Below are positions 21,259 through 33,815 of a DNA stretch of 64,000 nt, piece after piece; positions within the stretch are counted from its first letter, which is position 1, and the number at the start of each line of letters is the position of its first letter. Where the stretch lies: positions 22,586 through 86,585 of IMG/VR virus record IMGVR_UViG_2681813421_000002. One strand, given 5' to 3'. Below the pieces are notes generated by a model. That model ran no database searches. It saw only the letters and a list, made by a program, of their open reading frames with translations, and was not told the origin of the DNA. A program made the translations under genes and the position numbers. The stretch is from a virus (taxonomy: Duplodnaviria > Heunggongvirae > Uroviricota > Caudoviricetes).

Positions 21259-22661
21259 TCACTATTACCAAAGAACGCCTGCTGACAATCCAGCAGTGGC
21301 GCGAAACATACGGACCTGGTAGCAACGTTGTACTGCCAGCAGAAGAAGCGGAAGAACTGGCACGAATTGCTCTGGCATCGCTGGAAGCAAAACCAGTTGC
21401 TTATATTTTCAAACATCCGGCCGGGAAATTATTCTGGGCTTTAACGGATGAAAGCAATAAAGAGCAAGCGGACGTTATTCCTGTTTATGCTGCCGCGCCT
21501 GCGTCGGTTGTGCCGGATAATGCATCAGAGCCTCTTGCTTATGCTTACAAAGAGCTTACGCCTGAGATTATGCGCAACCATTTAGCTGTATTCGAGCGAT
21601 ATGGAATAGCCCCAAACGATAGCTCTACCACAATTCAGGCACTGCGAATCGCGCTGGATGGTATAGAGCGGAGCGACGCCATGCTTCAGTCCGGAAACTT
21701 TCGGGAAAACAAGAATTCGTCAACCAATAATTTTCGGGAAATCGCGGAAACGTCAACCAACTATCCGGTAATTCCTAGTGAGCTGTTGTCCGCAATCCTG
21801 AAGGTTGCCAAGATTCGTGCCGATTTCGATGATTTTGACGGTGACAGGCGAGGTATCGATGATTGTCTGGATGAGGCTGAGCAAGAGCTTATCGTTACCA
21901 TTAACAAATATGCCAGTCAGTTGGCAGCAGAACCGATAGCGACTAATGACGTTCGAGAGCAAACAGCCGTTCCGCCAGTTCCGGTAATGCAGGCTGATGT
22001 CGCGCAGGCAATTGAAAAACTCAAACGGAAATTAGTGGAATGCAATCGCTATAACTACTGTGCAGATGCAGTTAAAGGCGTAGAGGATGCCTGCCGTGCT
22101 GTTAGCTATAGCCAAGCCGACAATCAGCCAGCATCTGGCAACCAGGCTGCCGAATCCAATCGCGGTAATGAGTGGACCGGCAATCCTGATATTGATAACG
22201 CCATCATCATGCTCGATCGCATAGATACGCTGGAAAGTTGCGATGATGACCGTATTGAGGCTGTTAAGGCTGTTTTGCGTAGACTGGCTGGCAACTATCC
22301 GGATATTCCGGATAGTTCGGTGCCAGCGCCAGGAAAGGGCGTCACCGGTGAACGTATCCGCATTAAGCCGCATGTTTATCGCGAACTGGTTAACCGTCTC
22401 CACGATACAGCGATCAAGTGTGCTGGCACCCAGCAATTACGAGAAAGAATTAGCCGTGTTTTGGGCGACGTTATTACACCAGATCATCATAAACAAGCCG
22501 AGAAAAGTGACCTGGAAAGGTGTCACCTTGAGGCGGCATTAAACATTAAGCCGGGGCATACGCTTGGCATTATTGATGCACTATTGGTTCATAAGATGGC
22601 CAGGGCTTTATTGCCGCTGGTGGCTGAAAAGCATGAGGTGGACCATGCCAACGAAAGCTGA
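21255..22661 (+). CDS. Hypothetical protein with internal tandem repeat and C-terminal motif shared with 13113-13724
   Basis: 468 aa; repeated FRENK/FREIAE segment; YRELVNRLHD...GTQQLRER. Confidence 0.5.
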   Translation: MITITKERLLTIQQWRETYGPGSNVVLPAEEAEELARIALASLEAKPVAYIFKHPAGKLFWALTDESNKEQADVIPVYAAAPASVVPDNASEPLAYAYKELTPEIMRNHLAVFERYGIAPNDSSTTIQALRIALDGIERSDAMLQSGNFRENKNSSTNNFREIAETSTNYPVIPSELLSAILKVAKIRADFDDFDGDRRGIDDCLDEAEQELIVTINKYASQLAAEPIATNDVREQTAVPPVPVMQADVAQAIEKLKRKLVECNRYNYCADAVKGVEDACRAVSYSQADNQPASGNQAAESNRGNEWTGNPDIDNAIIMLDRIDTLESCDDDRIEAVKAVLRRLAGNYPDIPDSSVPAPGKGVTGERIRIKPHVYRELVNRLHDTAIKCAGTQQLRERISRVLGDVITPDHHKQAEKSDLERCHLEAALNIKPGHTLGIIDALLVHKMARALLPLVAEKHEVDHANES

Positions 22662-24049: not shown

Positions 24050-24121
24050 GCTGCAAAGTGCTGGTGCTTTATGCCTGTGAAGTTTATAATTGTGTACACA
24101 TAACGAGTACACGAGGTGTTT

Positions 24122-24343
24122 ATGCAATCCATTAACTTCCGTACCGCGCGTGGCAACCTTTCTGAAGTGCTCAACAATGTTGAAGCCGGGGAAGAGGTTG
24201 AAATCACCCGCAGAGGCCGTGAGCCAGCAGTAATTGTCAGCAAGGCTACTTTTGAAGCCTACAAAAAAGCGGCGCTGGATGCCGAATTTGCATCCCTGTT
24301 TGACACCCTGGACTCCACCAACAAGGAACTGGTTAACCGATAA
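24122..24343 (+). CDS. phd: Phd antitoxin
   Basis: [73 protein letters not shown] matches P1 Phd as I recall it. Confidence 0.9.
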
Positions 24344-24723
24344 TGAGGCATATATCACCGGAAGAACTTATTGCGCTTCATGATGCGAATATAAGCCGCT
24401 ACGGCGGCCTGCCGGGAATGTCAGATCCGGGCAGGGCAGAGGCCATTATCGGGAGAGTTCAGGCCAGAGTTGCCTACGAAGAGATCACCGACCTTTTCGA
24501 AGTCTCCGCCACCTACCTGGTGGCTACGGCGAGAGGGCATATATTCAATGATGCCAATAAGCGTACCGCGCTAAACAGTGCGCTGCTATTTCTACGCCGT
24601 AACGGTATACAGGTATATGATGATCCCGTGCTGGTGGAGCTTGCAGTGGGGGCTGCAACTGGTGAAATCCCCGTATCTTCAGTAGCGAAAAAACTACGTG
24701 AACTATATGGTTCCAATATTTGA
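24343..24723 (+). CDS. doc: Doc toxin (Fic-fold kinase)
   Basis: 126 aa, start overlaps phd stop; matches P1 Doc in sequence, length and gene arrangement. Confidence 0.9.
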
Positions 24724-24755
24724 AAAGAAGCCCGCTCAACCAGGCGGGCTTCTTA
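24724..24755. terminator. Hairpin between convergent doc and terminase-like genes (weak bidirectional terminator)
   Basis: GAAGCCCGC...GCGGGCTTC stem; flanking A/T runs are short. Confidence 0.35.
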
Positions 24756-24758
24756 CTA

Positions 24759-25853
24759 TCACTCAATGATTTTTTCTGCTGTCAGCCAGCTAATTTCTTG
24801 CCTGTCTTTCGGCGGTTTTAGCATGTGGGCGTATTCAGCGACATTCTCCCACGGAATTGTTTTTGCCCACTCAACGATAGCATTGTGATCTGCAGTGAAG
24901 AGTGGAATGGTGTGCGATTTCAACCATTCTAATGTCGTGACGCCATGTTTTTTGGCGTGGTGCTGCGCATGATGCCGGGCTATCACTCGTAATGGTATTG
25001 TCCATTCACTACCATCAGGCATCGAAAAGCGCATTGTCTTCGGCATATCTGATTCAAGAACAGCCTCCCTAATACCAGGGAACTCACCAAGAATCATACG
25101 ACGATAGTCATCACTATTTCGCCCGCCATACCTTTCGGCAAAATGATCAAGATATTCTTGGGTAATAAATGGTGAATCCTCCGCACTCAGCTTAATGGCT
25201 TTATATACACCACTCGGATTATCTTCAGCTAAAGCACGTCCATGATGTGAATCATAAAAAAAGCCTATTTCCTCTGGTGACGGAATTGAAGTGAGCAATA
25301 TGCGTGAATCACCACTAGTCATGCTTGCCCACACAATGCTGTATGCCCGATCGCTGATATGTGCGGAATCCACAATAATGAATAAAAGATGGTCGGCGTA
25401 GTGACCTGCAATGCTATCTTCATAGTTAAGGCGGAAGTTACAAAAGCACATTCCCCAAAATTCATTGAACATCAGACCGCTATCACCGACCTTAAAATAC
25501 TCAATGATAAAAGGTTGTTTTTTCAGCAATGCCTCCCAACATTGCCACACATATGCAACAATTCCTCTTTTGCAAACATTTGATTTTGGATAAACAATTA
25601 CTGTCCGGGAATCAGGATACATAATCGTATAAAGGGTACTAATAACAGCAAGCACTTGCGGTCGTCCGATCCCATACGGAGTGGTGACAGTAGCTTTTGC
25701 ATTATTGGGCTGTATAGCTTCAACAATTTGTTGTTGCTGGTGGCTTAAATCAATATCAAACAATTCTTTTGCTGCCAGTACCCAATTGTCTTTATATTTC
25801 TCCACCAGCGACAGCCAGCGCGGATCTTTATAAATATTGCTCTTAGTCGCCAT
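24759..25853 (-). CDS. Terminase large-subunit-like ATPase paralog with degenerate Walker A/B motifs
   Basis: Aligns with PacB-like N-terminal domain (SHQQQQI..., FYDSHH..., NPxG) but Walker A GHGTGKS is replaced by PYGIGRP and Walker B ILDEASGIS by IIVDSAHIS; start taken at MATKSNIYKD. Confidence 0.6.
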   Translation of the reverse strand: MATKSNIYKDPRWLSLVEKYKDNWVLAAKELFDIDLSHQQQQIVEAIQPNNAKATVTTPYGIGRPQVLAVISTLYTIMYPDSRTVIVYPKSNVCKRGIVAYVWQCWEALLKKQPFIIEYFKVGDSGLMFNEFWGMCFCNFRLNYEDSIAGHYADHLLFIIVDSAHISDRAYSIVWASMTSGDSRILLTSIPSPEEIGFFYDSHHGRALAEDNPSGVYKAIKLSAEDSPFITQEYLDHFAERYGGRNSDDYRRMILGEFPGIREAVLESDMPKTMRFSMPDGSEWTIPLRVIARHHAQHHAKKHGVTTLEWLKSHTIPLFTADHNAIVEWAKTIPWENVAEYAHMLKPPKDRQEISWLTAEKIIE

Positions 25854-26610
25854 CTGCCACTTCCTTAACTTCTTCTTTGGCCTGTTCTGCAATCGCCGCA
25901 CGGCATTTCGCCCTGGCTGTAGCGATTGCTTCAGCTCGCACATCGTCTGGAATCGTTGACGTGATATACATATCCAGTTCTTCGGCACGGAATACTGTTT
26001 GGTCCAGATATTCGCGTAGCATCCAGGTAAATTCGAAATCACACGCGATAATCTCTGCGCCACCTTCTGCACCATTTGGGAAATGAATAAATGCCTGTTT
26101 AGCCAAACCGATAACACGACATGCGGTTGCCAAAACAGCGACAACCAGGTTTACATTTTCACACGCTACGGGCTGGTTAACGCCGGAGATTACTCCATTT
26201 AACTGTCGGTTATATGGAAGGTAGTTTGAGATGCGTTCTACGCGCCATGTGCCAGTCAGGCTGCCATTTTTAAATATAATTGGTGTAACGGATAGCCCAA
26301 GCTCGCGTATAAGTCGTTGCGCTATAGCAGGATCATTAAACAGGTCTAATGCTACACATTCGAAAGACTGCGCAAGGGCAAACAGTTCTTCCAGAGAGTA
26401 GTCTTTGCCCCTGGCGGTGATGTAACGACGAACGCCGCTGTCTGCATCACTCCATATAGCTACGCCATGCTCTTCATTCAGCTCTTCATTAAAGCCGAGA
26501 TACGTCATGATAGTGCGTTCAATCGTGTCAAACGGCAGTGACATGTCGGCGTTAACAGCCACCAGCAGGCCATTACGCAAGCGGTATTGAATTGTTTTAG
26601 TGCTTTCCAT
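25843..26610 (-). CDS. Hypothetical protein
   Basis: 255 aa; stop overlaps start of the terminase-like paralog. Confidence 0.45.
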   Translation of the reverse strand: MESTKTIQYRLRNGLLVAVNADMSLPFDTIERTIMTYLGFNEELNEEHGVAIWSDADSGVRRYITARGKDYSLEELFALAQSFECVALDLFNDPAIAQRLIRELGLSVTPIIFKNGSLTGTWRVERISNYLPYNRQLNGVISGVNQPVACENVNLVVAVLATACRVIGLAKQAFIHFPNGAEGGAEIIACDFEFTWMLREYLDQTVFRAEELDMYITSTIPDDVRAEAIATARAKCRAAIAEQAKEEVKEVADGD

Positions 26611-26616
26611 GTCAAA

Positions 26617-27057
26617 TCACTCCACAACAAACCAGTCACAGGCCAGCAGGTCGCCAACTGAAGGCACCCACGGAACAACTACACCTTGTGCATTTTTTAA
26701 GGCGAAATAAGCACCATACGGAACGAGGTCGCCGGGGAAATATCCCTTAATGGCTTCCATTCGTGCCGGGTACTGTCCTTCAGGAACCAGCCAGCAGAAT
26801 TGGTTTTCGCCGTTCCACCCGCGTCGAGCAACTTTCTTGCCTTCCTTCAGCCACATCAGCGCGTCTGAAAAGTCGGCTGCTTCAAGGTCGATTTCTTCTT
26901 GCTGGGTGGTGATGCCACCAGCAGAAATAGTTACGCTCCCGGTAAGATTAATCATCACGCCGTTGTCATCCGTAATGATGACCGTGGTTCCATTTTTTTT
27001 GTGAGCTTTGTATTTGGGACGGAACTTAAAAAGCTCTTTCGTTGCCATGTTATTCAT
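26617..27057 (-). CDS. DUF2829-family protein (Tad2-like fold) with N-terminal extension
   Basis: 146 aa; FSDALMWLKEGKKVARRGWNG ... VGDLLACDWFVVE signature. Confidence 0.55.
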   Translation of the reverse strand: MNNMATKELFKFRPKYKAHKKNGTTVIITDDNGVMINLTGSVTISAGGITTQQEEIDLEAADFSDALMWLKEGKKVARRGWNGENQFCWLVPEGQYPARMEAIKGYFPGDLVPYGAYFALKNAQGVVVPWVPSVGDLLACDWFVVE

Positions 27058-27071
27058 AGTCTTTTCTCTGC

Positions 27072-27566
27072 TTATAACTTTTCGTACTGAAGCGGTGAAC
27101 GCTTAATTTCAAAGTGGCCTTCCGATGTGCTACCAAAGCCACCAGCACCACGCTCCGTTTCGTTGAGTTCCTCAACCTCGACTAGTGAGACTTGTTCAAC
27201 ACGCTCAAAAATTCCTTGCATGACAGCCATTCCAGGCTTGAGACAAACGCCTTCCCCGCCGGGATCAGTAATCAGTTTTGCCATGATTTCGCCGCGATAA
27301 TCGGAGTCGATAATTCCTACGCAGTTAGCCAGGCGAGTATGTTTTTTGCAGCCCAATCCTGATCGCGGATAGAGTTTCAGACACCAGCCGGGCGGGATCT
27401 CCATAGCCAGTCCGGTATACACCCACCAGCTTGAGGAAATTGCACCATTGCTATCGACGCATGGTTTTATTTCAACAGCCTCAAAATCCATCGCCGCCGA
27501 TCCGGAGGTGGCATAAGCTGGAAGTTTTGCTGCCGGATGTAGGCGTTTCACTTTTACGTAAATCAT
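27072..27566 (-). CDS. dut: dUTP diphosphatase (dUTPase)
   Basis: 164 aa; motifs PRSGLG, GIIDSDYRGEI, RGAGGFGSTS. Confidence 0.8.
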   Translation of the reverse strand: MIYVKVKRLHPAAKLPAYATSGSAAMDFEAVEIKPCVDSNGAISSSWWVYTGLAMEIPPGWCLKLYPRSGLGCKKHTRLANCVGIIDSDYRGEIMAKLITDPGGEGVCLKPGMAVMQGIFERVEQVSLVEVEELNETERGAGGFGSTSEGHFEIKRSPLQYEKL

Positions 27567-28039
27567 TGTTTTTTAGCTCTCTGCGTGAAGGTGTAAACCC
27601 GACGTTTGATATGTGGAACGGTAGGAACAGGAAGACAGGAACTTTCAATAACTCCTTGCTCATCCAGCGATCGCACCGCCCGCAAGAACTGCGACGTGTC
27701 GCCGCCAAACTGGCGGGCATAGGTGCTGCCGTTATGAAGTATTTGAGCTATTACCCGAGTTTTTGTCTGGCTGTCACGATATGCGAATAGCCGCACGGCC
27801 TCTTCTGGCGCAATCGCTAACTGATAGCCTTTCCCGGCACGGTGTCGAATGAATCCATGCGCCAGTAGGTTTTTGAGTTCGTTACGAGTGCGAACAGATC
27901 CGTAACCCAGGAAGTGTGGATTGATAACGACTGGCTTAAACCATTCCGTAGGTGCTTTAGCTAATAGAGCTAACAGCTTCCCGGATAATTCTGGATAGGA
28001 AGACGGGTAACAATTCAGAGATGGGTAATAAGTTTTCAC
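27563..28039 (-). CDS. Hypothetical protein
   Basis: 158 aa ORF in operon. Confidence 0.45.
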   Translation of the reverse strand: MKTYYPSLNCYPSSYPELSGKLLALLAKAPTEWFKPVVINPHFLGYGSVRTRNELKNLLAHGFIRHRAGKGYQLAIAPEEAVRLFAYRDSQTKTRVIAQILHNGSTYARQFGGDTSQFLRAVRSLDEQGVIESSCLPVPTVPHIKRRVYTFTQRAKKQ

Positions 28040-28380
28040 CGACGCCCCCTTGCAGGATATCGACCTGCATTAGTATCCGGTGCAATAAAGCCGGTAGTGG
28101 GGCGAGTGAAAGCGAGATTAATCTTCTCGACCATAGTGCGATAATTTTCCTGATAGTGGGCCAGGAGTTTTTCGGCGGCAATGATGGTTACTTTCCGGAC
28201 GTAGCTTTCTGCTTCCTCCAGATTTCGCCAGTTTTTTTCGAGGGTAAACACAGGGACGGCCTCAAGCCCGGTCATGATGCCGAACACAACGACAGCATGA
28301 CTGTTCTTAACACCAGCGGCGAAGGTTACGGTGTAACCATCCACCTTGAAGCGTCTTGATTCCGTGATTTGACTCTGCAA
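28036..28380 (-). CDS. Hypothetical protein (first gene of operon downstream of cre)
   Basis: 114 aa ORF immediately downstream of operator-like motif. Confidence 0.45.
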   Translation of the reverse strand: MQSQITESRRFKVDGYTVTFAAGVKNSHAVVVFGIMTGLEAVPVFTLEKNWRNLEEAESYVRKVTIIAAEKLLAHYQENYRTMVEKINLAFTRPTTGFIAPDTNAGRYPARGRR

Positions 28381-28435: not shown

Positions 28436-28455
28436 ATGTGTTAGAAATTTAATTT
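28436..28455 (-). promoter_or_regulatory. Operator-like motif (AATTAAATTTCTAACACATC on minus strand)
   Basis: Between cre stop and start of the 114-aa gene. Confidence 0.5.
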
Positions 28456-29482
28456 ATAAATCCATCAGGCGGCTATTAGCCCCCACAGACACGCCGCCAC
28501 GGCGCAGATACCGCATAAGTGTTTCCGGTTTCTTCCAGGTTCCTTCCTGCATAATCTCCACCATAGAGACCTGCTTTTCAGCCATATCGATAGCGGCCCC
28601 GACGCGTGCACTATGCCCGGTCCACGTCCGGTATCTTCCTTTGTTTGGCGTAGCATCTCCTTTATTCAGCAACACCCAGGCGTCGCTGAATATTTTCTCC
28701 ATTGCAGGTGCAGTAAGGGGCGTTATCGTGATCCTGGCCTTATTGCTACGGTGTATCGGCGGGAACAGCACTGCGTCAGGATGTTCGCGAAGCCCGGAAA
28801 CATCCAGCCAGTCATTCAGCACAGCGGTAGTGCGACGGGAAAGCACCTTATCAAGCCCGGCGGCGGTCGTTATTGTCTTCGTGTGTGAAATATGTAGCGT
28901 GACAGTGTCACCTGTTTGGTCCAGATCTCCTACACGAATACGCGAGATTTCCGACATACGCATCAGCGTATTGTATGCAACAAAGAGAAAAGCCCGGTTG
29001 CGCAGGTCCACCAGCCGTTCAGACCTGGACAACAGGACGTCGAGCAGTTTCAGATCGTCCCACCGCAGCGGTATAGCCTGGCCTGTTCGTTCGCCTTTTT
29101 CAGTTGCCGCTTCGCGCCGGATGCGCCGCATAGCCAGAGAAACACTTTTATCATCCGAAAGTGGTGGAAGGCCACAATGCGAAAGCAGCATGTTCAGCAT
29201 GGCGTAGTGCTTATCAATGGTGGTCGAAGCCAGATCGGCATCATGCAGCTGAAGAAAATACTCGCGGGCCATTTCTGGTGAGATCGGAAACCAGGCAAGC
29301 TGGCGAGCGTGACACCAGCGCGCCCAGGAATGAAACACCAAACGGAGGTCGCGCAGAGTATTCGGCGCATAAGCTCCCTGGTCATTCATGAACCGCATAA
29401 AGTTTTCTGCGGCTTCCTGGTACTCTTTGCCAATGTTGCGCAGAAAACCACCGGAACTGCCAGAGATAATTAATTCACCCAT
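28454..29482 (-). CDS. cre: Cre-family tyrosine recombinase (diverged from P1 Cre)
   Basis: 342 aa; colinear with P1 Cre including catalytic-region motifs (AYNTLMRMSEISRIRVGDL; WTGHSARVGAA; GTW; MRYLR) but many substitutions. Confidence 0.85.
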   Translation of the reverse strand: MGELIISGSSGGFLRNIGKEYQEAAENFMRFMNDQGAYAPNTLRDLRLVFHSWARWCHARQLAWFPISPEMAREYFLQLHDADLASTTIDKHYAMLNMLLSHCGLPPLSDDKSVSLAMRRIRREAATEKGERTGQAIPLRWDDLKLLDVLLSRSERLVDLRNRAFLFVAYNTLMRMSEISRIRVGDLDQTGDTVTLHISHTKTITTAAGLDKVLSRRTTAVLNDWLDVSGLREHPDAVLFPPIHRSNKARITITPLTAPAMEKIFSDAWVLLNKGDATPNKGRYRTWTGHSARVGAAIDMAEKQVSMVEIMQEGTWKKPETLMRYLRRGGVSVGANSRLMDL

Positions 29483-29633
29483 GAAACTATTTGACCTCTA
29501 TATACAGATGACGCTACGCGAAAAATATAAAAATGACAGGGTAGCTATAAGTTAATTTTCAAAATACAAGCCTTTGATTCGAGGCACGTATTTTCAGTGA
29601 TGTCAACACTGTTCATCTACACATGATTATAGC

Positions 29634-29667
29634 CTAACTTTAAATAATGCCAATTATTTAAAGTTAT
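29634..29667. other. lox-like recombination site (13-bp inverted arms, 8-bp spacer)
   Basis: CTAACTTTAAATA-ATGCCAAT-TATTTAAAGTTAT; same architecture and partial identity with loxP, located about 150 bp upstream of cre. Confidence 0.65.
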
Positions 29668-30923: not shown

Positions 30924-30946
30924 GCCCCGCATCGCGGGGCTTTTAT
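30924..30946 (+). terminator. Rho-independent terminator
   Basis: GCCCCGC-ATC-GCGGGGC followed by TTTTAT. Confidence 0.55.
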
Positions 30947-32451
30947 ATATCCAGATCCGGCATTTCGATATCCGCCAGAACCTGATCTCGGAAAGTTGCC
31001 ATTTCGGCACCAATATCTTCATTAGCAGGCACATAGTCCACCAGCATAGTGAAGCAGTAGGTATCCCATCGGTCAGGCGATTTGATGTTTAGCTTTTGCC
31101 GCATGTGCTCTTTGCGCATCATCGCCATTTTCCCTTCCTCATTCAGTAAAAAGGGGATTTTTGACGCTTGCTCTGCCGTTTTAGGGTCACTGTCTATCCG
31201 CATACGCCCTGACTTTATGGCATCACGCGCCATAATATTTGCGTAGGCACGCTGATTAACAAATCGCTCCCTGTCTTTGTTCGCAAACATGGGTTTTCCC
31301 CACCGAATACGTACCGGGTTCGCACCACGACGTACCAACTGCGCACACGTATCAGAACCAAAACCATCGGCATCAACCGCGATTGTTATATTCGGGTATT
31401 TTTCCGGCGTACATTCGTTATATATAAAGTCAGCAAAGGCCAATGGGTCCATAGTGCCAGGCATCTCCATTACCTTAAAGTTAACAACGCGCCGCTTATC
31501 CCTGTGACCAGATACCTTGCAGATGTTGAGGACCGACTTATCTCGCCCATTACCAACGTCAGCCGTTGCCACCCATCCCCAGTTTTTCTCCAACAACACC
31601 TTGCGGCGAGCAGCGCGATCGCATTCATCACGACCAAGCAAATAGCCGTTAATTTCTCGTGGGAACTGACCAAGCACCTTGACCATATACTCAATAGAAT
31701 CGCGCCCACCATATTCCAGAAGCTTCTGCCTGATGAATTGTGGTGTGACGAACGGTGATTCTTCCGAGTTAAGAACAATTGCTGTCCAGATCCCTTTCGG
31801 GTTGTCTGGGGTTTTTGCTTGAGAATGGTGCGAATCGTAGAAATAACCACTTGGCCTTGTTGGCTGGGATAGCATCAACATCCGGTTATCTTCTTCAGTA
31901 AGAGCACCGGTCATTACGCCGATCGCCTTATCAGATATACCAGATGCTTCATCCAGAATTAGAAGCAAATGTGCCGCATGTTCCCCCGCCAGCGCTTCTT
32001 CGTTGCCGAGTCGATAACCTTTGCAGAGAACTTCCCAAATCCCCTTACGGGAGCGCTCATAAAACATGGTGTCAGAGAGGACAAAATAGGTCTGCAACCA
32101 CCCATGACGCTTAACTGCATTCGCCCAATACTGTTTAACGTATTTGAATACGCCTGTTTTTACCTGGCCTATCTTGTTAGCAACAATGATGACACGGGCA
32201 TCGGGGAACAGGATCATAAAAATCAACAGCAACATCGCGGTAAGGGACGACTTCCCAGTTCCGTGTCCGGACGTGACGGTCGTCCTACTCCCCGTTTCCT
32301 GCACGGACTGAATGATCTGCTGCTGCTGGTGGGAGGGGAACATCCCAAAAATATCGACAACAGCCTGGGTAAAGTTGTAGCGGTATTTGATTACCATATC
32401 GCGCCAGCGTGGATCGCTGGTGACGCATTTAATCTTGCGCCCTCCAGCCAT
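30943..32451 (-). CDS. pacB: Terminase large subunit (PacB-like)
   Basis: 502 aa; Walker A GHGTGKSS, Walker B LLLILDEA, C-terminal nuclease-type acidic residues. Confidence 0.85.
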   Translation of the reverse strand: MAGGRKIKCVTSDPRWRDMVIKYRYNFTQAVVDIFGMFPSHQQQQIIQSVQETGSRTTVTSGHGTGKSSLTAMLLLIFMILFPDARVIIVANKIGQVKTGVFKYVKQYWANAVKRHGWLQTYFVLSDTMFYERSRKGIWEVLCKGYRLGNEEALAGEHAAHLLLILDEASGISDKAIGVMTGALTEEDNRMLMLSQPTRPSGYFYDSHHSQAKTPDNPKGIWTAIVLNSEESPFVTPQFIRQKLLEYGGRDSIEYMVKVLGQFPREINGYLLGRDECDRAARRKVLLEKNWGWVATADVGNGRDKSVLNICKVSGHRDKRRVVNFKVMEMPGTMDPLAFADFIYNECTPEKYPNITIAVDADGFGSDTCAQLVRRGANPVRIRWGKPMFANKDRERFVNQRAYANIMARDAIKSGRMRIDSDPKTAEQASKIPFLLNEEGKMAMMRKEHMRQKLNIKSPDRWDTYCFTMLVDYVPANEDIGAEMATFRDQVLADIEMPDLDI

Positions 32452-33815
32452 TAATCATCCTCCGGCGGTTCTATCGCGATATCTTCATCTCCGGCGTCAT
32501 ACCCTGCATCAGATGCATCATAATCACCGTAAATTTCAGCCGTTGCCGAAGGGTCAATATCCAGCTCTTCGTCGTTGGCCTCGAATTCTCCAGCTTTACG
32601 CTCGCCATTGCGGTCGTAATCTCCGCACCCCAATTCTTCAACAATGGTTGCCACATCCGCCCGGCGCTCTGCCAGCCATTGCGGATGGTTAGCCTGAAGC
32701 GTCGCAAACTCCCTTGCCTCTTTGTCCAGCTGTTCATCATCAACATCATTGACGTCAGAAACAGGTGGTTCGAGAAGAGTGATAGCTTTCGCCGCGCGCG
32801 CCGCGAGGATAGCCGGGACGCTGACCCCCTGGCGCTCGATGTATTCAGCAACACCGATATCATCCAGTTCCTCGCGCTCACGCATACGTATAGCGGCGGC
32901 GATAACTCTGGCTGCGCGTGCGTCAGCGCCAATGCGATATTCAATCTCTTTGCCACGCTGTTCGGCCTGTAGGCGTGCTAATTCGAGTTTTTCTCTGGCC
33001 TCAGCCTCTTTGAATGCTTGCTGGCGAGCGCTCTGACGAAGCTTTTCATCCCCCTGTCGCAGCTTTTGTTCGGACTGATATATAGCTGCCAACCTACTGA
33101 TAAAATCATTCATGTAGTAGGCAGCGTCACTGATTAGACCGAGAAGGCGCTGCCCAGGGTGCATTCCTTCTGGCTCTTTATCGCCCAAGGCGTCTATTTC
33201 CGCCTGTAGACGTTCGGCCTCCTGATCAACAATGCTTTGATACTGAAGTGCGCGCTCTTGCGCCATTTGAATTGCTAACCGCAGGTGTTCTTCTGCGCCG
33301 TTCTTCATCATATCGCGAGCCACATTCGTAGTGGGCAATGTGGCACGCTGCACAGCACCGCCAGGGATCATTGCTGAAGATCCCTCAATTTTTGGGGCGC
33401 TTTTATCTTCTTCGGGGATCATTTTCGCCATTTTTTCGCGCAATGATCTCCTGACAGATTCTTTTATCTCATTGTTATTATTTGCATTATTTTCATGATC
33501 CGAAGTTTTCTTTCTCGGCATACTTCGGAAAGAACCTGCGCCCTGCGAATTGTCAATTTCTGTAAATTTTGTTTTTTCTGCACCCTCTTCCAGCTTTTTT
33601 GTTGCTCTTCCCGCCCGTTTTTTTTCAGGTGATTTGGTGCTTTTTTTTGTTGTCTTTACCTGCGACCGCACCTCATTTTTTTTCATATTGAGATGCTTTC
33701 TGGCTGTATTGAAGCTAAGGCCATGCTCCTCACAGTATTCCTTTACAGTGATCCCTTTTTCTTCACGCAACGCTATAAAGCGGGCGCGGTGCTCCTCCCA
33801 ATTAACCAGACTCAT
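32451..33815 (-). CDS. pacA: Terminase small subunit/pac-recognition protein (PacA-like)
   Basis: 454 aa; N-terminal HTH-like region, acidic C-terminus, 1-bp stop/start overlap with pacB, internal GATC cluster. Confidence 0.7.
   Translation of the reverse strand: MSLVNWEEHRARFIALREEKGITVKEYCEEHGLSFNTARKHLNMKKNEVRSQVKTTKKSTKSPEKKRAGRATKKLEEGAEKTKFTEIDNSQGAGSFRSMPRKKTSDHENNANNNNEIKESVRRSLREKMAKMIPEEDKSAPKIEGSSAMIPGGAVQRATLPTTNVARDMMKNGAEEHLRLAIQMAQERALQYQSIVDQEAERLQAEIDALGDKEPEGMHPGQRLLGLISDAAYYMNDFISRLAAIYQSEQKLRQGDEKLRQSARQQAFKEAEAREKLELARLQAEQRGKEIEYRIGADARAARVIAAAIRMREREELDDIGVAEYIERQGVSVPAILAARAAKAITLLEPPVSDVNDVDDEQLDKEAREFATLQANHPQWLAERRADVATIVEELGCGDYDRNGERKAGEFEANDEELDIDPSATAEIYGDYDASDAGYDAGDEDIAIEPPEDD
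33360..33505. other. pac-like packaging site: cluster of five GATC-containing elements within pacA
   Basis: GATC at 33366, 33379, 33417, 33445 and 33497, several as TGATC(C/T) in both orientations; reminiscent of the P1 pac hexamer repeats. Confidence 0.4.

Follow-up and report, generated by a model that had tools for sequence, protein, structure and literature searches.

The 64,000-nucleotide stretch analyzed here (the window; positions 22,586 to 86,585 of IMG/VR virus record IMGVR_UViG_2681813421_000002) is a D6-like member of the P1 phage-plasmid family. The last gene of its seven-gene dre operon encodes a protein of 364 amino acids (aa) that is homologous to PacB, the terminase large subunit (TerL) of P1-family phages, and is referred to below as the paralog. 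Around this gene the window is collinear with Escherichia phage D6 at 97 to 98% nucleotide identity. E. coli plasmid p702_18_3 (NZ_CP074704) has a 100% identical protein and 98.7% nucleotide identity over the surrounding ~6.4 kb. The gene starts with an ATG at 25853, preceded by AAGGA 8 nt upstream, and ends with the stop codon 24759-24761; a longer TTG open reading frame (ORF) up to 26144 was rejected as a spurious extension into the upstream isaA-like gene. Some GenBank records label the dead paralog "terminase large subunit" (e.g., MH422554, L003 4995-6089; protein P0002), and P0002 is an over-extended 438-aa ORF call that reaches into isaA.

The ATPase-like domain and its relatives

In a BLASTP comparison, aa 7-259 of the paralog align with aa 10-264 of the PacB protein encoded in the same window (37% identity, 62% positives, E value of 3e-56), and the PacB proteins of P1, P7, D6, and SJ46 are matched by tblastn with E values of 1e-44 to 1e-48. 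The first-pass annotation had proposed a paralog of the PacB ATPase domain from three common blocks, SHQQQQI, FYDSHH, and DNPxG (noted there as NPxG), and the BLASTP alignment agrees with this. The AlphaFold2 model of the paralog, built on a 46-sequence alignment, is confident (pLDDT 89.8, pTM 0.80), and its N-terminal domain has the TerL-type ASCE P-loop ATPase fold. In profile searches the paralog matches phrog_5902 over its full length (E value of 8.6e-165), and Pfam and NCBIfam yielded nothing usable. No second copy of either domain of the paralog was found within the window.

The catalytic motifs of the ATPase are gone. Walker A, TSGHGTGKSS in PacB, reads TTPYGIGRPQ in the paralog; Walker B changes from LLLILDEASG to LLFIIVDSAH, the Mg-binding Asp being replaced by Val and the catalytic Glu by Asp; and motif III changes from SQPTR to SIPSP. 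The alignment confirms two earlier claims, namely, that the Walker A Lys and Ser are replaced (GIGRP versus GTGKS) and that the Walker B DE is replaced by VDS (IIVDSA in the paralog). The motifs do not lie intact in another register either: a regular-expression scan of the whole protein found no [AG]x4GK[ST], no GK[ST], and no hhhhD[DE] in any register. Of the five features that define a functional terminase, this homolog of TerL/PacB therefore lacks four: the Walker A Lys-Ser/Thr, the Walker B DE with motif III, the RNase H-like nuclease domain, and adjacency to pacA or morphogenesis genes. We infer from the residues lost that the protein lacks the capacity for ATP hydrolysis and probably that for ATP binding, too. 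Since it has no P-loop Lys, Mg-binding Asp, coupling motif, or nuclease, it cannot serve as a packaging enzyme and must act by binding.

How old is this loss? An exhaustive phmmer search covering 1.84 billion representatives returned 793 matches, and the 123 matches of 200 to 620 aa were aligned; a word-indexed homolog search with the full protein returned 7 clusters only, so that the family becomes visible only by exhaustive search. Both GxGK[ST] and [DE]E are present at the Walker positions in 98 of the 123 aligned matches. A distinct set has neither motif and includes the three types of paralog distinguished below (A, B, and C) together with P0007, P0009, P0012-P0015, P0047, P0150, and others. 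In a neighbor-joining tree, computed with no support values, these dead-motif proteins form one clade adjoining the P1-family PacB clade. The substitutions at the dead Walker positions vary by lineage, and the position of the catalytic Glu is variable across the clade. A column comparison revealed 28 positions conserved in both the dead clade and PacB, including the QQ of the Q-motif, the P-loop glycines, and the lid motifs G.FY..HH, SE.SP, YGG, and G.F (G.FYDSHH, SAEDSP, YGG, and G.FP in the paralog). The positions conserved only in true PacB proteins (S58, G59, H60, T62, K64, S65, D161, E162, Q190, T192, and R193) are precisely the catalytic residues. This pattern indicates that the loss of catalytic motifs is old and common to the whole clade, not a recent accident. 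Apart from this clade, the Walker A loop of two distant TerL homologs, P0039 and P0053, is interrupted by a large insertion resembling an intein (…ASGHGCF…VLHNT-GKS…).

The dead domain is under constraint. Nei-Gojobori dN/dS ratios range from 0.08 to 0.49 over all segments, with 0.39 to 0.49 for aa 1-140 and 0.08 to 0.15 for the rest. Intact ORFs of the paralog are kept in three or more lineages and at two genomic positions. In PLSDB, about 20% of the PacB-bearing plasmids (~163 of 791) have a copy that spans 80% or more of the protein. By identity, these copies form three groups, with values of at least 95% for type A (the type of the window), about 64% for type B, and about 51% for type C. 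A recent pseudogene is ruled out, since intact copies are found at 51 to 100% identity and dN/dS stays below 0.5. Judged by conservation and substitution rates, the paralog can be described as a selectively maintained pseudo-enzyme derived from an old duplication of the PacB ATPase domain. Among the copies inspected, only one is disrupted, the type C copy of vB_EcoM-813R1 (L004 4989-6059), which is frameshifted and has a divergent C-terminal end. Among GTDB species representatives, the fused form occurs in one Escherichia genome, with one partial match in a metagenome-assembled genome labeled Bacillota; the remaining matches cover only the ATPase-domain part of the query.

A stand-alone phage domain at the C terminus

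The C-terminal part of the paralog had been described as unlike the terminase nuclease domain, and this holds: BLASTP found no similarity to PacB beyond aa 259 of the paralog, and hhalign gave a probability of 0.06% for the C-domain family against the PacB family. A degenerate nuclease domain is thus ruled out by both BLASTP and profile-profile comparison. Genuine PacB also matches phrog_5902 (E value of 3e-152), so that this family is not specific to the paralog; the full-length match of PacB arises because the PHROG is mixed, not from homology of the C termini.

Instead, the C-domain matches stand-alone phage proteins of ~100 aa (phmmer E values of 1e-9 to 1e-14). A profile search returned 1,104 clusters, all of them "hypothetical." Pfam gave no family among those listed or scanned for the stand-alone proteins, and no fold neighbor of the C-domain was found in PDB. 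The conserved core reads MPDGS.W.VP..VIA.HRA...T.PLF...I.DWA.NNM.W.DV and is present in the paralog; the invariant columns in alignments A3 and A4 are D, P, A, A, T, P, F, W, W, and W. The C-domain also matches the C terminus of phrog_17928 (E value of 2e-13).

Stand-alone C-domain genes sit in early operons. One follows a DnaB-type helicase gene in a 46-kb phage contig, and Cronobacter phage JK004 has the same gene order and sizes; another lies in a lambdoid early-left operon with DUF2303, beside int. In Xanthomonas phage CP2, the C-domain is fused to a DUF1351-like 511-aa protein, encoded between DUF2303 and erf-exo-endo-ssb. DUF2303 genes recur in such early operons (L082 903-3303, Xanthomonas phage CP2; L013 3315-6342), and a functional link between the DUF2303 and C-domain families is possible. 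Within the dead clade the C-domain is optional: a 75%-identical paralog in another D6-like plasmid ends at residue 266, and most of the distant dead relatives are 244 to 268 aa long, i.e., without the C-domain.

Operon context and cassette exchange

The operon runs from dre through two unknown genes, a dUTPase gene, a Tad2-like gene, and an isaA-like gene to the paralog (Table 1). Its presumed promoter overlaps the rox site upstream of dre, and the overlap means that dre expression and the recombination site are physically coupled. P1-type C1 operator and late-promoter motifs were not found near the dre operon, as expected because a D6-type element is heteroimmune. The ATG of the paralog overlaps the stop of the isaA-like gene by 11 nt, suggesting translational coupling. 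Convergent with the paralog lies an intact phd-doc addiction module, and the terminator hairpin is common to both. The Tad2-like gene is a candidate anti-Thoeris sponge on a phage-plasmid, as judged from its Pfam match; longer versions of 214 to 218 aa occur in related plasmids (L007 3045-3701; L083 3590-4234).

TABLE 1 Coordinates of the paralog, its domains, and neighboring features in the window
Feature	Position	Strand	Remarks
Paralog, whole gene	24759..25853	-	364 codons plus stop; last gene of dre operon; RefSeq WP_000201932.1 identical
Paralog N-terminal domain, aa 1-260	25074..25853	-	Pseudo-ATPase; fold of the PacB/TerL ATPase type, in which Walker A, Walker B, and motif III are all destroyed
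Paralog C-terminal domain, aa ~266-364	24762..25058	-	Small alpha/beta domain: beta-hairpin, three helices, short strands; not a nuclease domain
Resident PacB, intact	30943..32451	-	502 aa; GTGKS, LDEASG, SQPTR, and nuclease domain; outside the accessory cassette
pacA	32451-33815	-	Packaging gene beside pacB
Sigma70-like promoter TTGGCA-16-TATAAT	29626..29653	-	11/12 matches; only strong one in 24-30 kb; presumed to drive the operon
rox site	~29626-29665	-	TAACTTTAAATAATTGGCATTATTTAAAGTTA
Dre/Cre-like recombinase	28454-29482	-	Upstream gene of the operon
Two unknown genes	28036-28380, 27563-28039	-	Operon members
dUTPase	27072-27566	-	Operon member
Tad2-like DUF2829 gene	26617-27057	-	PF11195, E value of 5.9e-23; two genes upstream of the paralog
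isaA-like gene	25843..26610	-	255 aa; phrog_2326; 48% identical to P1 IsaA
Hairpin and T-run, intrinsic-terminator-like	24730..24745	-	Directly after paralog stop; ends the operon
phd-doc addiction module	24116-24723	+	Intact

The upstream partner isaA is conserved in all full-length contexts of the paralog examined. IsaA itself is confined to P1-like elements and present in 479 plasmids, so often without the paralog; it is nonessential in P1 (PMC10695390). IsaA was considered as a paralog of PacA, the small terminase subunit (TerS), which would have made the pair a duplicated pacAB, and BLASTP found nothing; it was also rejected as a divergent DUF2303 protein (hhalign probability of 0.08%), and a comparison with PDB gave nothing significant.

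The isaA-paralog pair also ends the dre operon in type B and N-domain-only plasmids. In P1-type elements, it lies directly after ssb and before hxr, and the P1 ssb promoters carry a C1 operator, which makes them early. The pair thus moves as a cassette at the end of early or constitutive operons, dre in D6-type and ssb in P1-type elements. The first-pass annotation had placed the gene in an accessory operon, and this holds; the gene is absent from D6 and P1. Reference phage D6 is without exactly the paralog and has pdcA instead (L001 4644-4841), and reference P1 (NC_005856 19000-25500, L005 3533-5245) has IS1 and isaB exactly in the paralog position. Neither P1 IsaB nor the DNA between isaA and IS1 is a remnant of the paralog, as no similarity was found. 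The isaA region corresponds to "RD-2," already described as a variable hot spot of P1-like plasmids (PMC6906374, PMC9603915).

Exchange also happens inside the cassette. Type A (window) and type B (CP088573) sequences are 96 to 100% identical at the nucleotide level across isaA, the C-domain, and the flanks, whereas identity falls to 46 to 82% in a segment that begins ~20 codons before the end of isaA and runs to about codon 250 of the paralog. Correspondingly, dS is 1.2 to 1.65 in the ATPase-like domain versus 0.115 in the C-domain and 0.107 in isaA. PacA/PacB are 99.1 to 99.8% identical among the window, the type B plasmid, and paralog-free D6. P1-type and D6-type PacA proteins are only 21% identical, and the paralog types do not partition accordingly. 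These identities mark the ATPase-like domain as an exchangeable cassette that does not coevolve with the resident terminase. Swapping independent of PacA/PacB would not be expected of a regulator closely fitted to its own packaging system; a target that varies outside the element is the better fit.

The last ~20 codons of isaA (25853-25910, minus strand; compared with L007 and L001) lie within the swapped, divergent segment together with the ATPase-like domain, and in D6 the last ~9 codons of IsaA are divergent as well. Either a functional tie between the IsaA tail and the paralog or simply the recombination breakpoint could account for this. P0012, a dead paralog of 263 aa that consists of the N-domain only, is encoded in an 84-kb P1-like contig (L019 6336-7792), where its gene shares 4 nt with the end of a gene for a Ref-like RecA-dependent nuclease; the partner of P0012 is thus different from IsaA.

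Possible role in conflict, rival explanations, and known systems

Among the proteins of tailed phages, the terminase large subunit is the most conserved, and it is a main target of bacterial pattern-recognition immunity (Avs1-3, Upx). What would a terminase-like protein that acts by binding bind to? Its lack of covariation with PacA/PacB, its dispensability in related phages, and its place in one operon with a Tad2-like gene make a partner outside its own packaging machine the most likely one. On balance, it is probable that the paralog is a mimic used in conflict, when anti-defense mimicry and interference with other terminases are taken jointly; the split between the two is soft. The form that we tentatively prefer is a terminase-ATPase mimic that would most likely serve as a decoy for TerL-sensing host sensors. 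The dead ATPase domain would be a nonactivating competitor for sensors of the Avs1-3 or Upx type that recognize the TerL ATPase domain, and it would be made early and so be present before PacB appears. In a slightly less likely form, it would be a dominant-negative binder of the terminase complexes of other phages. A second binding function would come from the C-terminal domain where it is present, and the operon holding the paralog and the Tad2-like gene would be needed at entry or establishment.

Known properties of the sensors are relevant here. The TerL ATPase domain by itself suffices to activate Avs2 and Upx, Avs2/Avs3 read terminase-bound ATP and active-site residues, and the authors of that work suggest that terminase-ATPase-like phage proteins that are not terminases may be anti-defense proteins (PMC13601566). 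The active-site residues read by Avs2/Avs3 are lost in the paralog. The fast evolution of aa 1-140 fits an arms-race surface and, together with the Tad2-like neighbor and the early or entry-time operon contexts, fits an anti-defense mimic. In its most specific version, in which a swapped family of dead mimics would bind Avs1-3/Upx without activating them because bound ATP and Walker residues are missing, the proposal is distinctly unlikely.

Several points weigh against the decoy. An Avs-type sensor should respond to a homolog of its trigger by activation rather than by being blocked, and a protein that no longer binds ATP may just fail to bind the sensor. To our knowledge, no phage-encoded TerL-like decoy is known. 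Literature searches on isaA/isaB, inactive terminase paralogs, decoys, and phage-plasmid accessory genes returned no description of the paralog, and a PADLOC-DB search with it gave 0 families at E values up to 1. The association with Tad2 is weak, as the operon also holds a recombinase and a dUTPase gene. Fusion to the C-domain is not essential to the core function, since N-domain-only versions exist. Furthermore, the C-domain and dead N-domain relatives recur after DnaB, beside erf-exo-ssb, and coupled to a Ref-like nuclease, and such replication and recombination neighborhoods could point to DNA metabolism.

A somewhat unlikely alternative is superinfection exclusion, in which the dead domain made by a resident plasmid-prophage would join or cap the terminase complex of an invader and stall packaging. 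The target would be the TerL ring, TerS, or portal of an invading PacB-type phage, much as an inactive subunit poisons a ring motor. Retention of the lid and other PacB-type motifs alongside the loss of catalytic residues suits this role, as do the constitutive-looking sigma70-like promoter of the dre operon and the swapping of the N-domain independently of resident PacAB, which is expected of a weapon directed against other phages. A precedent exists in TerI, a prophage protein that blocks the terminases of invaders (bioRxiv 10.1101/2025.02.27.640495), and both classic plaque-forming lab phages are without the paralog. However, no self-immunity component is evident, the P1-type pair lies downstream of C1-repressed ssb promoters and is probably silent in lysogens, and the identity of the paralog to known PacB proteins does not exceed about 40%, making coassembly with a real terminase uncertain.

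Exaptation to replication or recombination is unlikely, a little more so than exclusion. Here the dead fold would be a DNA- or protein-binding scaffold working with IsaA, SSB, recombinases, or nucleases, and the C-domain would dock it. The settings of the C-domain family speak for this (after DnaB, in DUF2303 early-left operons, and in the DUF1351-like fusion of CP2), and so do the type C pair that follows ssb, the overlap of N-domain-only P0012 with a Ref-like RecA-dependent nuclease gene, and the presence of Dre and dUTPase in the window operon. Phage early operons are, however, generally rich in small accessory genes, so that the association may be nonspecific, and the partners change from lineage to lineage. 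We also know of no TerL fold that grips DNA without ATP, which counts against a scaffold of this kind.

That the paralog regulates its own element's packaging is improbable. As a safety catch it would titrate PacA or occupy PacB sites, either preventing untimely pac cleavage or timing packaging; being a paralog of resident PacB with N-terminal and lid motifs in common, and encoded in a non-late operon, it would be present before the late pacAB genes are expressed. But plasmids with 99 to 100% identical PacA/PacB carry N-domains differing by 40 to 60% or no paralog at all, the paralog types do not follow the deep split between P1-type and D6-type PacA, and only about 20% of PacB-bearing plasmids have the gene. 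The mosaic ATPase-like domain, with differences of about 50 to 60% between such plasmids, and the paralog-free D6 and P1 genomes make a regulator of the resident packaging enzyme less likely.

A decaying, functionless duplicate, which would account for the loss of all catalytic motifs, the frameshifted 3' end of the vB_EcoM-813R1 copy, and the many relatives without the gene, is very improbable and effectively refuted by dN/dS and conservation, given intact ORFs across 51 to 100% identity, a confidently predicted fold, clade-wide lid motifs, and a translationally coupled start with a good Shine-Dalgarno sequence.

The paralog represents a branch of the terminase fold made up of pseudo-ATPases, distinct in domain architecture and in its behavior as a cassette, i.e., an uncharacterized protein with a known fold. 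It defines a selectively maintained dead branch of this fold in clinically widespread E. coli phage-plasmids; its variable domain can be swapped, and some members are fused to a very common, unstudied early-phage domain. At the least, this corrects database entries labeled "terminase large subunit," and absence from the lab references P1 and D6 would help explain why the paralog has been neglected. If it is a mimic acting on sensors or rivals, phage conflict would gain a new kind of weapon, namely, a conserved trigger copied as a pseudo-enzyme, and there would be a handle on the function of IsaA and of the >1,100-cluster C-domain family. If it is a decoy of TerL-sensing receptors, it would be the first anti-defense strategy made from a pseudo-enzyme copy of the trigger itself. 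A 2026 study flags extra terminase-ATPase-like phage proteins as an unsolved question (PMC13601566).

Compared with known systems, the paralog differs from functional PacB (phrog_2, Pfam Terminase_6N) in having no Walker A/B, SQPTR, or nuclease domain. The PacB gene adjoins pacA, whereas the paralog gene is accessory and is next to neither pacA nor a portal gene. Proteins of phrog_17928 (about 511 aa, Xanthomonas phages) have a DUF1351-like N-terminal part, where the paralog has a TerL-like one. Another extra copy is T4 vs.8, a stand-alone terminase-ATPase-like protein with conserved Walker A/B that activates EcAvs2 (Evans et al. 2026, PMC13601566) and is discussed as a possible anti-defense protein (PMC13601566). 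Both vs.8 and the paralog are extra phage copies of the TerL ATPase domain without the nuclease domain; vs.8 keeps Walker A/B, and the paralog has lost both, the features of vs.8 being taken from its description in PMC13601566 only. Their TerL lineages also differ, vs.8 being T4 gp17-like and the paralog PacB-like.

Proteins of resident elements that act on the packaging of other phages are also comparable. Ppi of staphylococcal pathogenicity islands (SaPI) is a satellite protein with the terminase complex of other phages as its target. In Listeria, comK prophages encode TerI (TERi), which likewise acts on the terminase complexes of other phages (bioRxiv 10.1101/2025.02.27.640495) and senses the nonenzymatic small terminase subunit (PMC13601566). 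TerI is a small protein with no terminase homology described and with dedicated self-immunity proteins; for the paralog, neither homology to TerI nor comparable immunity genes were found. TerI is a functional precedent for packaging interference by a resident element.

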